This document shows positions 1,009 through 41,587 of a stretch of 41,587 bases of DNA, piece by piece; within the stretch, counting starts at the first letter, position 1; the number at the start of each line of letters is the position of its first letter. Under the pieces are notes generated by a model. That model was not told where the DNA came from and made no database searches. It saw only the letters and a list, made by a program, of their open reading frames with translations. Location of the stretch: positions 1 through 41,587 of the IMG/VR virus record IMGVR_UViG_2541047938_000008. The stretch is one strand, 5' to 3'. Origin of the DNA: a virus (lineage: Duplodnaviria > Heunggongvirae > Uroviricota > Caudoviricetes). The translations under genes were made by a program, and so were the position numbers.

Positions 1009-1083
1009 GTCCTCTTAGTTAAATGGATATAACGAGCCCCTCCTAAGGGCTAATTGCAGGTTCGATTCCTGCAGGGGACACCA
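1009..1083 (+). tRNA. argW: tRNA-Arg (anticodon CCU)
   Basis: 75-nt cloverleaf: anticodon loop CTCCTAA, T-arm GCAGGTTCGATTCCTGC, encoded CCA end. Confidence 0.9.
1054..1069. repeat. attL core-type identity segment (TTGCAGGTTCGATTCC) inside the argW T-arm
   Basis: Exact 16-bp copy recurs at 41352-41367; integrase gene immediately downstream. Confidence 0.6.
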
Positions 1084-1244
1084 TTTATCAGTTCGCCTCC
1101 ATCCGTACCAGTCCGCAAAATCCCCTGAATATCAAGCCTTCCGTAGATTCACAGTTCGTCATGGTTCGCGTCAGATCGTTGACAGCCGCACTCCATGACG
1201 GGTAAAAAGTGGATAAAATAATTTTACCCACCGGATTTTTACCC
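1084..1244 (+). promoter_or_regulatory. attL arm region overlapping the intS promoter
   Basis: Between tRNA 3' end and intS start; repeated CAGTTCG and CCNTCCGTA motifs and a copy of CCGCACTCCAT; by analogy with KplE1 attL. Confidence 0.4.
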
Positions 1245-2402
1245 ATGCTCACCGTTAAGCAGATTGAAGCAGCAAAGCCGAAAGAAAAACCATACCGCCT
1301 TCTCGATGGTAATGGCCTGTACCTTTATGTCCCTGTATCAGGGAAAAAGGTATGGCAGCTTCGCTACAAGATTGACGGTAAGGAGAAAATCCTGACCATC
1401 GGAAAATATCCGCTTATGACTTTGCAGGAAGCAAGGGATAAGGCATGGACTGCGAGGAAAGACATCTCGGTTGGCATCGATCCGGTAAAAGCGAAAAAGG
1501 CTTCGTCTAACAACAATTCCTTTAGTGCAATTTACAAGGAATGGTACGAACACAAGAAGCAAGTCTGGTCAGTAGGGTATGCGACTGAACTTGCAAAAAT
1601 GTTTGATGACGACATTTTACCCATCATCGGCGGTCTTGAGATTCAGGATATTGAGCCGATGCAACTGCTGGAAGTAATCCGCAGATTTGAAGATCGCGGT
1701 GCAATGGAACGAGCCAACAAAGCACGCAGAAGATGCGGAGAGGTTTTCCGTTACGCTATTGTCACCGGAAGGGCTAAATATAACCCGGCACCTGACCTTG
1801 CTGACGCCATGAAGGGATACCGCAAGAAGAACTTCCCGTTTCTTCCTGCAGACCAGATCCCGGCATTCAACAAAGCACTGGCAACATTTTCAGGAAGTAT
1901 CGTATCGCTCATTGCGACCAAAGTTTTACGCTACACAGCCCTAAGAACGAAAGAGCTTCGTTCCATGCAATGGAAGAACGTCGATTTTGAAAACAGGATT
2001 ATCACTATCGACGCCAGTGTGATGAAGGGACGCAAAATTCATGTGGTTCCTATGTCAGACCAGGTGGTTGAACTTCTCACTACGCTAAGCTCTATCACCA
2101 AACCAGTATCAGAGTTTGTTTTTGCCGGCCGCAACGATAAGAAAAAGCCAATCTGCGAGAACGCGGTATTGCTTGTGATCAAACAAATCGGCTATGAGGG
2201 TCTGGAAAGCGGTCACGGATTCAGGCATGAATTCAGCACGATTATGAACGAGCACGAATGGCCTGCTGATGCTATTGAAGTGCAACTGGCACATGCCAAC
2301 GGCGGATCTGTGCGCGGAATTTACAACCATGCTCAGTATCTCGATAAGCGCAGAGAAATGATGCAGTGGTGGGCGGACTGGATTGATGAGAAAGTATCCT
2401 GA
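1245..2402 (+). CDS. intS: Tyrosine integrase, KplE1/CPS-53 IntS type
   Basis: Protein from MLTVKQIEAAKPK matches E. coli IntS; ORF track begins at an upstream GTG (1209); adjacent to argW. Confidence 0.9.
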   Translation: MLTVKQIEAAKPKEKPYRLLDGNGLYLYVPVSGKKVWQLRYKIDGKEKILTIGKYPLMTLQEARDKAWTARKDISVGIDPVKAKKASSNNNSFSAIYKEWYEHKKQVWSVGYATELAKMFDDDILPIIGGLEIQDIEPMQLLEVIRRFEDRGAMERANKARRRCGEVFRYAIVTGRAKYNPAPDLADAMKGYRKKNFPFLPADQIPAFNKALATFSGSIVSLIATKVLRYTALRTKELRSMQWKNVDFENRIITIDASVMKGRKIHVVPMSDQVVELLTTLSSITKPVSEFVFAGRNDKKKPICENAVLLVIKQIGYEGLESGHGFRHEFSTIMNEHEWPADAIEVQLAHANGGSVRGIYNHAQYLDKRREMMQWWADWIDEKVS

Positions 2403-2783
2403 TTATATCGCCGGGTTATCGTCATCGGTGGCCCGGTTAATCAGGTGCGTCAAAATCCCCTTCACATCCACCTCATTAAGAACCTCACCTTCCAGAACTT
2501 CACCATCTACCGTTATCAGCGCATCACCTCTGCGCCTGGCAAAGTGACAGCCACCTGAGTACGAAATCAGGTAGGTGCTATCTGGTGATGGCTTCATTCC
2601 CTTTTCTATCACAGCAAACCCATGCGATGTCTCAATCACCAGGCTGTTAGCCGTGACGCCGCAGATAGTCTCTATGGTTAGCGTGCGTTCAATGTAGTCT
2701 TTAGCTGGACTTGGGAATCCCATGATGACCTCCGATAGATGCTGTATATTAATACAGTAATACCGATCGGCGTTGTCGATCAA
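2403..2783 (-). CDS. UmuD-like (LexA/UmuD S24 family) protein, apparently degenerate
   Basis: GFPSPAKDYIE motif as in the UmuD N-terminal tail; GDALITVDGEV and DVKGILTHL align to the UmuD C-terminus; nucleophile position reads SGGCH instead of SGDSM; no Lys at the general-base position. Confidence 0.4.
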   Translation of the reverse strand: MIDNADRYYCINIQHLSEVIMGFPSPAKDYIERTLTIETICGVTANSLVIETSHGFAVIEKGMKPSPDSTYLISYSGGCHFARRRGDALITVDGEVLEGEVLNEVDVKGILTHLINRATDDDNPAI

Positions 2784-2835
2784 GTTGTCTGTTGGTGCTA
2801 AACTTCTGCCTTCTCAGAATTGACTGATTTTTCTA

Positions 2836-3198
2836 ATGTTAAAACTTTTTGCTAAGTACACATCGATAGGCGTACTCAACACGCTCATCCATTGGGTTGT
2901 GTTTGGTGTTTGCGTGTATGGACTATCAACAAGCCAGGCATTGGCGAACTTTGCAGGGTTCGTCGTAGCCGTCAGCTTTAGTTTCTACGCTAATGCTCGT
3001 TTCACTTTTAAAGCATCCACTTCCACGCTGCGTTACATGCTTTACGTTGGGTTTATGGGAACGCTGAGTGCTGCTGTAGGTTGGGCTGCTGACAGGTGTG
3101 GCTTACCACCAATCGTCACACTGGTGGCTTTCTCAGCCATTAGTCTCGTATGTGGATTTTTCTATTCTAAGTTCATTGTCTTTAGGGAAGCGAAATGA
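2836..3198 (+). CDS. gtrA: GtrA, bactoprenol-linked glucose flippase
   Basis: 120-aa four-helix membrane protein, first gene of a gtrA-gtrB-gtrS set overlapping by 4 nt. Confidence 0.85.
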
Positions 3199-4112
3199 AA
3201 ATTTCTCTGGTCGTTCCGGTCTTCAATGAAGAGTCCACGATACCGATTTTCTATAAAACGGTGCGAGAGTTCGAGGGGCTAAAGCAATACGATGTTGAAA
3301 TCGTGTTCATTAATGACGGAAGCAAAGACGCGACAGAATCAATTATTAATGCGCTTGCTGTTTCTGACTCGTTAGTTACTCCTCTATCATTCACCAGGAA
3401 CTTTGGCAAAGAACCTGCGTTGTTTGCGGGACTTGAGCATGCTACTGGCGACGCTGTAATTCCGATTGATGTTGACCTTCAGGATCCGATTGAGGTCATC
3501 CCTCACCTAATTGCAAAGTGGCAGGCAGGGGCCGACATGGTTCTTGCCAAACGTTCAGATCGCTCTACTGATAGCAGACTTAAGCGCAAGTCTGCTGAAT
3601 GGTTCTATAAGCTGCACAATAAGATTAGCTCTCCAAAAATTGAAGAGAACGTTGGTGATTTTCGTCTGATGTCGCGTGAAGTTGTCGAGAACATAAAAAA
3701 ATTGCCAGAGCGCAATCTTTTTATGAAGGGAGTCCTTAGCTGGGTTGGTGGAAAAACTGACGTAGTTGAGTACGTACGTGCAGAACGTGTTGCTGGTGAT
3801 TCAAAATTCAACGGGTGGAAGCTTTGGAATCTGGCACTTGAGGGGATTACTAGCTTTTCGACGTTCCCGTTAAGAATGTGGACTTACATTGGTCTGTTTG
3901 TTGCCGGATTATCCTTCCTGTATGGCGCATGGATGATTTTAGATAAGATTCTTTTTGGCAACAGTGTTCCAGGCTACCCATCACTACTTGTGTCTATCCT
4001 GTTCCTTGGGGGCATACAACTTATAGGTATAGGCGTTTTGGGTGAGTATATTGGTAGGATATATATTGAAAGTAAAGGTCGGCCTAAATATATCCTTAGA
4101 GGGAAAAAATGA
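3195..4112 (+). CDS. gtrB: GtrB, bactoprenol glucosyltransferase (GT2 family)
   Basis: 305 aa, N-terminal GT2 domain (VVPVFNEE, DxD region) and C-terminal TM helices. Confidence 0.9.
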
Positions 4113-40918: not shown

Positions 40919-41263
40919 ATGTCAGATTTGGCTATGAAGGTTTTGAAATGGCAATCAACTGGCGATGTCGGTATCAGTAGCGCAACTCTTGCCTCAATCG
41001 CATGTGGGCTGAAAAAGAATATCTATGGTCATCACTTCGGCGCTCCACATGACGCAGCCGATTTCAGACGATGCGTTGCACTTGTTGAGCAGATTCCAGA
41101 AATCAGAGATTCATTCGACAAGGTTGCAAAGCGCGTTCCGTCATTCAAAGGAATCCTCAACGAATGGGATTCACTCGTCGCTCTGTTGAAGTCTGAAATG
41201 AAGACGTACGGGAACAAAGCACCAGAGACTTACAGAAGAATCAGCGAGCTACGCAAGGACTAA
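40919..41263 (+). CDS. Hypothetical protein
   Basis: 114 aa from MSDLAMKVLK; the upstream part of the listed ORF lies inside the terminator. Confidence 0.45.
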   Translation: MSDLAMKVLKWQSTGDVGISSATLASIACGLKKNIYGHHFGAPHDAADFRRCVALVEQIPEIRDSFDKVAKRVPSFKGILNEWDSLVALLKSEMKTYGNKAPETYRRISELRKD

Positions 41264-41320
41264 CCCGCCTCACACTCGATGAGGCATTTTCATTTATCAA
41301 GATATCCAGACCTACCATCG

Positions 41321-41342
41321 CCGCATCAATGCGGTTTTTTTA
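41321..41342 (+). terminator. Intrinsic terminator upstream of torI
   Basis: CCGCA-TCAA-TGCGG hairpin followed by TTTTTTTATT. Confidence 0.55.
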
Positions 41343-41351
41343 TTACCTGAT

Positions 41352-41367
41352 TTGCAGGTTCGATTCC
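41352..41367. repeat. Second exact copy of the argW T-arm 16-mer (att core-like)
   Basis: TTGCAGGTTCGATTCC identical to 1054-1069, in the torI promoter region. Confidence 0.5.
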
Positions 41368-41386
41368 CTATTCGGAGATAGCACTC

Positions 41387-41587
41387 ATGCAACACGAACT
41401 ACAGCCTGATTCCCTGGTTGATTTGAAATTCATCATGGCTGATACTGGCTTTGGTAAAACCTTCATCTATGACCGGATTAAGTCCGGAGACCTGCCAAAA
41501 GCCAAAGTTATCCACGGACGAGCAAGATGGTTATATCGTGACCATTGTGAATTCAAAAATAAGCTCTTAAGCCGCGCCAATGGGTAA
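41387..41587 (+). CDS. torI: Excisionase / recombination directionality factor TorI (AlpA-Xis family)
   Basis: 66 aa, MQHELQPDSLVDLKFIMADTGFGKTFIYDRIKSGDLPKAKVIHGRARW..., winged-helix Xis fold family. Confidence 0.9.
   Translation: MQHELQPDSLVDLKFIMADTGFGKTFIYDRIKSGDLPKAKVIHGRARWLYRDHCEFKNKLLSRANG

Follow-up and report, generated by a model that had tools for sequence, protein, structure and literature searches.

Whether the P22-like prophage lodged in the argW tRNA gene of an Escherichia coli strain is still a complete phage, or has been put out of action by the insertion sequence (IS) that it carries, is the question raised by the DNA analysed here, a stretch of 41,587 nucleotides (IMG/VR record IMGVR_UViG_2541047938_000008, positions 1 to 41,587) referred to below as the window. 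A preliminary description of the window had proposed a near-complete P22-like prophage at argW with an IS21 insertion as its only obvious lesion, and had taken it for the intact counterpart of the cryptic prophage KplE1 (CPS-53) of E. coli K-12. Gene content and gene order argue that the element is very probably a temperate P22-like (Lederbergvirus-type) podovirus prophage, which integrated in the 3' end of argW via an IntS/TorI module and was disabled by a copy of ISEc12, its particles being predicted to be non-infectious. Genes were assigned by BLASTP of all open reading frames (ORFs) against annotated P22, Sf6, IME10, HK620, lambda and K-12, together with PHROG and Pfam scans and the gene calls of the source contig.

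ISEc12 interrupts gene 16 of the prophage

The inserted element showed 99.6-99.9% identity to NCBI-annotated copies of ISEc12, an IS present in 2010 of 5426 complete E. coli genomes. Its ends are of the TG...CA type with nested terminal inverted repeats, and it is flanked on both sides by a perfect 7-bp target-site duplication (TSD), GTCAGGT. Homology to gene 16 of Sf6 and IME10 stops at about position 8205 and resumes at about 10772. Bounds of 8203-10759, drawn from the repeats TGAAAGGAGATC/GATCTCCTTCA, were rejected, as they leave no target duplication and other ISEc12 copies align further out; the bounds 8191-10771 were confirmed by exact empty sites in other assemblies.

Deletion of the IS and one of the duplicates from the sequence restored an uninterrupted gene 16 of 759 codons, with the two halves in frame, which matched phrog_770 (DNA transfer protein) with an E value of 2e-225. 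The restored protein of 759 amino acids (aa) was residue-for-residue the same as gp16 of three uninterrupted siblings (L020, L021 and L022). These have the same tailspike gene as neighbour, and their DNA over the insertion point is the reconstructed empty site. One of them, the sibling prophage L020/L008 in GCA_902841615.1 (CADGKR010000001.1), was 100% identical over the 12,156 bp of the virion end, with the IS removed, and differed by 4 single-nucleotide polymorphisms (SNPs) in the 10,669 bp of the early region (99.96%), that is by at most 4 SNPs in 22.8 kb overall. The ORF in which the 5' part of gene 16 is fused to the IS was found only in the assembly of this strain and in one independent read-level assembly (Logan SRR958752). 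Since the restored ORF and the empty site match, the sibling is nearly identical and the fusion ORF recurs in an independent assembly, the insertion, at about codon 583 of 759, is real and simple and looks recent. Two apparent lesions in the relatives were set aside. A truncated c2 in the sibling (119-aa call) proved to be a gene-calling difference, the DNA encoding the same 216-aa C2, and a 588-aa gp16 call in L019 corresponded to no sequence lesion relative to the restored gene.

It could be argued that the IS was put in gene 16 by a scaffolding or assembly artefact and that the prophage is really intact, because the sequence comes from a draft scaffold, assemblies classically break at IS copies, and many E. 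coli genomes carry ISEc12 in multiple copies. However, the window is free of Ns (0 in its whole length), the 7-bp duplication matches at both IS junctions, and the read-level assembly has the same fusion ORF. We give such an artefact practically no chance.

In P22, gp7, gp16 and gp20 are needed for delivery of DNA into the host but not for assembling DNA-filled particles, and each assembles independently of the other two (PMC8402733). Because the IS splits gene 16, which is needed for DNA delivery in P22, non-infectious particles are predicted. The IS21 insertion is thus the sole gross lesion, as had been proposed, but it is not a benign one, since it splits an essential ejection gene. Could the prophage nevertheless be fully infectious, with the truncated gp16 at work or the IS as mere cargo? 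In that case 583 of 759 residues plus 9 IS-encoded ones would have to function, possibly along with a 182-aa C-terminal ORF starting from an ATG in the IS end. Viable phages do carry insertion sequences (IS911 in ninG of Sf6, IS903 in HK022), other ejection proteins of P22 can still enter particles as N-terminal fragments (PMC8402733), and there is an ATG at 8203, in frame with the C-terminal fragment of gp16 and upstream of it. But the insertions of Sf6 and HK022 lie in non-essential genes, whereas here a DNA-delivery gene is split (PMC8402733), no Shine-Dalgarno sequence lies ahead of the ATG at 8203 on the gene strand, and the uninterrupted siblings all retain gp16 as a single 759-aa ORF. 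We therefore regard continued infectivity as highly unlikely and favour a prophage disabled by ISEc12.

At 759 aa, the restored gp16 is longer than its counterparts in Sf6 (665 aa) and P22 (609 aa), and it shares 78% identity with Sf6 gp13. The homology to Sf6 gp13 begins only at residue 170 or so, within 10772-12522, and the N-terminal region would therefore be a different, longer module.

Integrity of the remaining genes and predicted behaviour

With the exception of gene 16 and Rz1, all ORFs were full length, end to end, as compared to those of the working phages IME10, P22, Sf6, HK620 and lambda. Alignments checked for further inactivating lesions revealed none of consequence, the sole oddity being Rz1, which ends ...SEVE* where Rz1 of Sf6, CUS-3, P22 and IME10 ends ...SEVESTG*, three residues (STG) longer. 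The shortening may amount to minor allelic variation or to a slight lesion. The proposal of a near-complete P22-like prophage at argW is thus well founded: apart from the IS there is no gross lesion, and once the IS is taken out the sequence is 100% and 99.96% identical to the uninterrupted sibling in the two regions compared.

A different history would make the element an old, cryptic and domesticated remnant of the CPS-53 kind, kept for gtr, Nun and other lysogenic-conversion genes and harbouring more hidden inactivating changes, of which the IS would be just the visible one. It does share its chromosomal site and integration module with cryptic CPS-53, its Rz1 is short by 3 aa and its structural block is divergent from sequenced phages. 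Yet some 60 ORFs are all full length, many of them 97-100% identical to proteins of working phages, and regulatory DNA is conserved, with the right-operator (OR) region 95% identical to that of P22 and pR'-qut-tR' near-identical to that of lambda. Moreover, the TSD is still perfect, and the siblings differ by so few SNPs (4 at most in 22.8 kb) that there has been little time for decay. Long domestication is accordingly very improbable. A satellite or phage-inducible chromosomal island (PICI), a tailocin and a remnant of a lambda-like siphovirus were ruled out by the full P22 virion set and the lack of long-tail genes.

For a P22-like prophage disabled only in gene 16, the following behaviour would be expected. 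In the lysogen, the P22-type C2 repressor would keep the prophage silent, while gtrABS would modify the O-antigen and Nun would exclude lambda-like phages. Upon SOS induction C2 would cleave itself, and transcription from pL and pR, with the phage-21-type N, would lead to expression of torI, erf and O/P. IntS together with TorI would then excise the element at the 16-bp cores, and the lambda-type Q, acting at a lambda-type pR'-qut, would drive the S-R-Rz lysis genes and the P22-order virion operon. A genome of 40.6 kb should still fit a P22-type headful. We predict from the gene complement that excision, replication, lysis and the assembly of DNA-filled particles are retained, but that particles without a functional gp16 would fail in DNA delivery and be non-infectious. 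Infectivity would be regained only if gene 16 were provided in trans or the IS were lost precisely.

Several points weigh against this picture. Induction, excision and particle production are deduced from homology only, and missense or regulatory defects are possible elsewhere in the prophage. For the ejection and tailspike blocks, none of 50,697 deposited phages exceeds 80% DNA identity, so that their intactness is judged from the length of the ORFs and the coverage of the profiles. Relative to all five comparators, Rz1 is short by 3 aa. A second P22-like prophage elsewhere in the genome could complement the defect; our analysis covered the present locus. The 583-aa N-terminal fragment of gp16 might keep partial function. 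Finally, the IS is antisense to the late operon in which it lies and might exert polarity on the tailspike gene downstream. A scan for promoters and terminators around the IS and the tailspike gene gave nothing better than shuffled sequences, apart from a convergent terminator at 5541-5561.

Extent of the element and its attachment sites

The window matched E. coli draft genome GCA_000461255.1 (scaffold KE702357.1) base for base, and the loci L005 and L014 were 100% identical to it over 21,779 and 10,669 bases, respectively. Its first 2.4 kb (yfdC, argW, intS) are 98.3% identical to E. coli K-12. The sequence CTGCAGGGGACACCAT, which is the published 16-nt core of the KplE1/CPS-53 attachment (att) sites (PMC2951348), occurs as a single copy within the window, overlapping the 3' end of tRNA-Arg(CCT), and the argW 3' end is regenerated by the prophage. 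The same 16-bp core is the attP core of Sf6, HK620 and CUS-3. The element had been taken to run from 1009 to 41587. It in fact starts at the att core, at 1069, and its attR core lies beyond the window, on the source scaffold at the window-equivalent of 41661-41676, 74 nt past the torI stop codon, with which the window ends. The right-flank sequence was supplied by an exact-protein look-up, in which the 123-aa ORF at 40892 gave no match but its 114-aa version (internal ATG at 40919) did. Beyond attR lie the host genes dsdC-dsdX-dsdA. Core to core the prophage measures 40,608 bp, or 38,004 bp without the IS and with one core copy counted.

The attL arm (1069-1244) is identical to K-12 at 171 of 176 positions (97%) and the attR arm, past the window end, at 86 of 89; the arm regions with IntS, TorI and IHF sites are conserved as wholes. 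The integrase gene intS adjoins attL and is transcribed away from argW, with torI at the opposite end of the prophage. Such placement of int and xis at opposite ends is a known hallmark of this module (PMC2951348, PMC3509656, PMC8787464), which is conserved among KplE1, HK620, Sf6, CUS-3 and other argW prophages, and KplE1 itself is excision-competent (PMC2951348, PMC3509656).

Comparison with KplE1/CPS-53 and with known phages

The present prophage shares with KplE1/CPS-53 the argW site, the 16-bp core, IntS (99%), TorI (100%), the att arms (97%) and homologues of gtrA and gtrB (87-88% aa). However, only 7.9% of the element aligned to the CPS-53 region of K-12, all of it at the two ends (yfdC-argW-intS 98%, gtrAB 76%, torI region 93%). 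The interior of CPS-53 (yfdI, tfaS, yfdK through yfdT) has no counterpart here: BLASTP at 1e-5 gave no match to yfdI, yfdK, yfdN-T or yodE, with the exception of YfdM (38% aa identity to the methyltransferase). Conversely, CPS-53 is without the repressor, replication, lysis and P22-type virion genes that are present in this prophage. The ends therefore match KplE1 as had been noted, in argW, intS, gtrAB and torI though not in the third gtr gene, which gave no BLASTP match to YfdI. The description as the intact counterpart of CPS-53 is not supported, since what the two have in common is the recombination module and the gtr locus.

Coverage of the IS-free prophage by known phages, with mean identity over the covered part, was highest for IME10 (66.8%, at 88.4% identity), followed by P22 (50%, 79%), Sf6 (44%, 89.5%), CUS-3 (31.6%, 91.0%), HK620 (30.5%, 91.0%) and Kapi1 (30.0%, 90.6%). 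The CUS-3 comparator was CP000711.1; NC_010463.1 is not CUS-3. For the closest sequenced phage overall, IME10 (NC_019501), this amounts to a nucleotide similarity of roughly 59% overall, and the genome is a mosaic. The same intS is found in IME10, TerS, TerL, Q, S and P are identical to it in aa sequence, and coat (89%), portal (88%) and C2 (97%) are close. It differs in the ejection proteins and gp14 (24-63%) and in the tailspike/gtr end, erf, ssb and N/Nun, and it has neither the tRNA cassette nor an IS.

P22 shares the virion gene order, C2 (94%), Cro (98%), OR (95%), Q (its gp23, 96%), holin (90%), Rz (94%), Erf (75%), coat and portal (72-76%) and the presence of gtrAB. Unlike the present prophage, it uses thrW as its integration site and has another int/xis pair, whose two genes lie together; its lysozyme is the T4-type gp19 rather than lambda R, and its helicase gp12 differs (31% identity). 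P22 also carries immI (mnt-arc-ant) and sieA between genes 16 and 9; no BLASTP matches to these were found among the window ORFs, and the distance from the gene 16 stop to the tailspike start is 155 nt, as in Sf6.

Sf6, HK620, CUS-3 and Kapi1 are P22-like and integrate at argW with the same int-attP-xis module and the identical 16-bp core (PMC8787464, PMC2951348); int and xis consequently lie at opposite prophage ends. They share the lambda-type S-R lysis genes as well, Sf6 and Kapi1 share the tRNA-Asn/Thr cassette, the CUS-3 record shares the prophage layout, and O/P of HK620 are 99-100% identical. In contrast, they carry Sf6- or CUS-3-type head genes (coat 24%) where the present prophage has the P22/IME10 type, Q of Sf6 and CUS-3 is of phage-21 type (519 nt) as against that of lambda, and their O-antigen modification genes are oac, neuO or a polymerase in place of gtrABS. 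Their DNA coverage is only 30-44%.

Coverage of 80% or more, for either half of the window, was reached by none of the 5426 complete E. coli genomes and by no deposited phage record; the element therefore does not just repeat a phage already described. The 50,697 phage records searched contained no relative with more than 80% DNA identity for 2403-8190 (tailspike, gtrS and UmuD'-like genes) or for 10779-15600 (gp16-gp20-gp7-gp14). Judged from these comparisons, the prophage is a new mosaic combination within a thoroughly described phage group. The ISEc12 copy itself is ordinary, and only its site, in gene 16 of a P22-like prophage, is strain-specific.

Gene map and virion block

From left to right, the genes are intS, a UmuD'-like ORF on the opposite strand, gtrA, gtrB, a GtrC-family gene, the tailspike gene and split gene 16; then 20, 7, 14, 26, 10, 4, 5, 8, 1, 2, 3, a Rha-like gene, Rz/Rz1, R and S; then tRNA-Thr, tRNA-Asn, Q, nin genes, P, O, cII, cro and c2; and finally N, Nun, ral, a gene for a 322-aa coiled-coil protein, cIII, kil, erf, an SSB-like gene, abc2, 'ea' genes and torI (Table 1). 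By gene order and homology the layout is canonical P22-like. A full P22-order morphogenesis block had been claimed and was indeed found: BLASTP against P22, IME10 and Sf6 placed the virion genes in the order 3-2-1-8-5-4-10-26-14-7-20-16-9 on the minus strand, from 24303 down to 5568, and the source contig carries the P22-family Pfam domains P22_portal, P22_CoatProtein, Phage-scaffold, P22_Tail-4, Phage_stabilise, P22_gp7, Inj_translocase, Phage_P22_gp16 and Head_binding (accessions PF16510, PF11651, PF09306, PF11650, PF11134, PF25688, PF16928 and PF26808, with PF09008 for Head_binding). Aa identities of the coat protein (89% to IME10, 72% to P22, 24% to Sf6) and the portal (88% to IME10, 76% to P22), together with TerS and TerL (100% to IME10), point to head genes of P22/IME10 type. 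The N-terminus of the tailspike is 73% identical to P22 gp9, and the protein is full length against phrog_21710.

Table 1. Features of the window, with coordinates, strand and supporting evidence
Feature	Position	Strand	Evidence or remarks
yfdC (host flank)	1..933	+	100% aa identity to K-12 YfdC
argW, tRNA-Arg(CCT)	1009..1083	+	ARAGORN; Rfam tRNA, 63 bits
attL core CTGCAGGGGACACCAT	1069..1084	.	identical to KplE1 16-nt core
intS, integrase, 385 aa	1245..2402	+	99% aa to Sf6 Int, K-12 IntS and IME10 IntS
UmuD'-like moron, 106 aa	2403..2723	-	phrog_3469, E 9e-42
gtrA	2836-3198	+	87% aa to K-12 YfdG
gtrB	3195-4112	+	88% aa to K-12 YfdH
serotype-specific gtrC/S-like gene	4109-5530	+	phrog_4829 (GtrC-like), E 8e-163
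tailspike, 643 aa	5568..7499	-	Pfam PF09008 Head_binding, residues 1-113 (E 1e-58); pectate-lyase-like domain
gene 16, 3' part (C-terminal ~178 codons), with left TSD 8184-8190	7655..8190	-	75% aa to Sf6 gp13 residues 488-665
ISEc12 (IS21 family), 2581 bp	8191..10771	+	ends TGCGTATT...AATACGCA; TSD GTCAGGT
istA, IstA 513 aa (DDE transposase)	8384-9925	+	Pfam rve and Mu-transpos_C_2
istB, IstB 249 aa (AAA+ helper)	9937-10686	+	Pfam IstB_IS21
gene 16, 5' part (583 codons), with right TSD 10772-10778	10772..12522	-	79% aa to Sf6 gp13
gp20	12522-13916	-	full-length match to P22/IME10/Sf6 homologues
gp7	13926-14606	-	full-length match to P22/IME10/Sf6 homologues
gp14	14600-15061	-	full-length homologue match; phrog_651, E 3e-68
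gp26, needle	15061-15759	-	full-length match to P22/IME10/Sf6 homologues
gp10	15759-17177	-	full-length match to P22/IME10/Sf6 homologues
gp4	17177-17677	-	full-length match to P22/IME10/Sf6 homologues
coat gp5, scaffold gp8, portal gp1, TerL gp2, TerS gp3	17931..24303	-	P22/IME10 homologues
Rz	25896-26333	-	94-97% to P22/Sf6; 59% to lambda
Rz1 (o-spanin), 58 aa	25958-26134	-	Sf6/P22-type
R, endolysin	26330-26806	-	97% to lambda
S, holin	26790-27113	-	99% to lambda
tRNA-Thr(TGT) and tRNA-Asn(GTT) cassette	27356..27511	-	ARAGORN, Rfam
Q, antiterminator	27786-28409	-	207/207 identical to lambda Q
nin region: ninI, ninH, ninG, ninF, ninX, ninE, Dam-like orphan methyltransferase, ninB	28406..31549	-	
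Dam-like orphan DNA methyltransferase, 181 aa	30567-31112	-	99% to IME10 orf32; PADLOC orphan-methyltransferase model
P (DnaB-like helicase) and O	31608..33933	-	P 100%, O 99% aa to HK620
cII	34105-34401	-	phrog_191
cro	34517-34702	-	98% to P22
c2	34783-35433	+	94% to P22; 97% to IME10
N, phage-21-type	35748-36053	+	phrog_271
Nun, HK022-type	36059-36394	+	phrog_5632, E 2e-70
early-left genes: ral, 322-aa coiled-coil Orf53-like, cIII, kil, abc2, DUF2737, Ead/DUF551, Lar-like/eaG	36598..41263	+	BLASTP Sf6/P22, PHROGs, contig gene calls
erf	38493-39098	+	75% to P22
SSB-like gene	39098-39481	+	
114-aa ORF	40919-41263	+	
torI, excisionase (recombination directionality factor)	41387..41587	+	100% aa to K-12 TorI and Sf6 gp18

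The gtr block (2836..5530) comprises O-antigen glucosylation genes, with a GC content of 35% in gtrS. Two close GATC sites lie upstream of gtrA, at 2764-2781. The pair is reminiscent of the Dam/OxyR phase-variation control described for P22 gtr. Between the DUF2560 and Rha-like genes lies a variable moron slot (24590-24780), in which about 100 nt stand in place of a segment of about 410 nt that carries gene 66 in Sf6 or its IME10 equivalent, and the sole ORF is one of 23 codons. The Rfam scan of the window returned three tRNAs and nothing else; all three score well by ARAGORN and Rfam. Pfam gave no match for the restored gp16, the UmuD'-like ORF, Nun, the SSB-like ORF or the 114-aa ORF.

Lysis, late regulation, replication and immunity

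A lambda-type Q-S-R-Rz cassette had been described. This is correct for Q, S and R, and the pR'-qut-tR' region is lambda-type too, but Rz/Rz1 are P22/Sf6-type. The Q region (27512..28409), including a lambda-type pR'-qut-6S-tR', is near-identical to lambda up to the T-run of tR'. A mosaic junction (27300-27530) coincides with the end of the lambda-type tR': immediately after it comes an Sf6/phage-21-type tRNA-Asn and tRNA-Thr cassette, which is also present in Sf6 and Kapi1. The cassette stands in for lambda orf-64, and lambda/Sf6 homology resumes before S.

Likewise, a mosaic joining P22-type C2, Cro and Erf to lambda-type Q and lysis genes had been inferred. Both sets are present (C2 94%, Cro 98% and Erf 75% on the P22 side; Q, S and R on the lambda side), but the join is nothing special. 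Since gp23 and gp13 of P22 are already 96% and 90% identical to the present Q and S, nothing in this block really departs from P22 except the lambda-type endolysin, which is common to Sf6, HK620, CUS-3 and IME10; the S-R arrangement is common to the same four phages.

The nin region, replication genes and immunity genes mentioned in the preliminary description were all borne out by BLASTP and PHROG identities. NinG, NinB and NinI are 100%, 99% and 97% identical to those of lambda, respectively. PADLOC recognised no known defence system besides the orphan methyltransferase. The replication genes are of HK620 type by their aa identity. In the immunity region (34105..35433), C2 (216 aa) carries an AG cleavage site and the GDSM/K motifs, and conservation of C2, Cro and OR indicates P22 immC-type immunity. 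The N-Nun DNA is 99% identical to that of mEp235, where both genes are annotated as N and Nun, and its N part is 98% identical to phage 21. The N-Nun pair is annotated in mEpX1 as well and is present in Kapi1. Here, an antiterminator and a lambda-excluding terminator are combined in a prophage with P22 immunity (35748-36394).

A UmuD'-like gene at the int-proximal end

The UmuD'-like ORF begins MGFPSPAKDYIE, of which GFPSPAKDYIE aligns to UmuD from residue 25 onward, just past the UmuD cleavage site. A near-consensus candidate LexA box, CTGTATATTAATACAG, is located at 2742-2757, 19 nt upstream of its ATG, and is one of 2 matches to CTGT-N8-ACAG in the window. The ORF had no Pfam or PADLOC match. 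An arrangement of UmuD-like and gtrAB genes is annotated in Enterobacter phages vB_Ecl_MII_001 and vB_Ecl_MII_003 also. That the prophage carries, besides gtrABS and Nun, an SOS-controlled UmuD'-like accessory gene at this end is a rather doubtful proposition, with which the start of the ORF and the candidate box would agree. Were the gene active, lysogeny would supply a pre-activated UmuD' analogue and alter SOS mutagenesis or checkpoint control of the host, a role that is known for HumD of P1 and is, to our knowledge, unstudied in P22-like coliphages.

Significance

P22-like argW prophages with the IntS/TorI module are well described, namely Sf6, HK620, CUS-3 and Kapi1 (PMC2951348, PMC8787464), and one more member of this well-known group has little general significance. 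CPS-53 and the present phage share only the integration/gtr module. The UmuD'-like moron with its candidate LexA box may merit a separate look. Among deposited phages, nothing closely related to the ejection-protein, tailspike and gtrS modules is known, so that the prophage adds a new mosaic combination, and its O-antigen specificity is probably new and not represented among isolated phages. The locus also offers a clean natural case in which one recent IS insertion, in an essential virion gene, has disabled an otherwise complete prophage. The uninterrupted sibling (GCA_902841615.1; also L021 and L022) is a natural 'repaired' control. As the exact uninterrupted progenitor sequence exists in other assemblies, the two can conveniently be compared to follow how prophage decay begins, or used to repair the phage.

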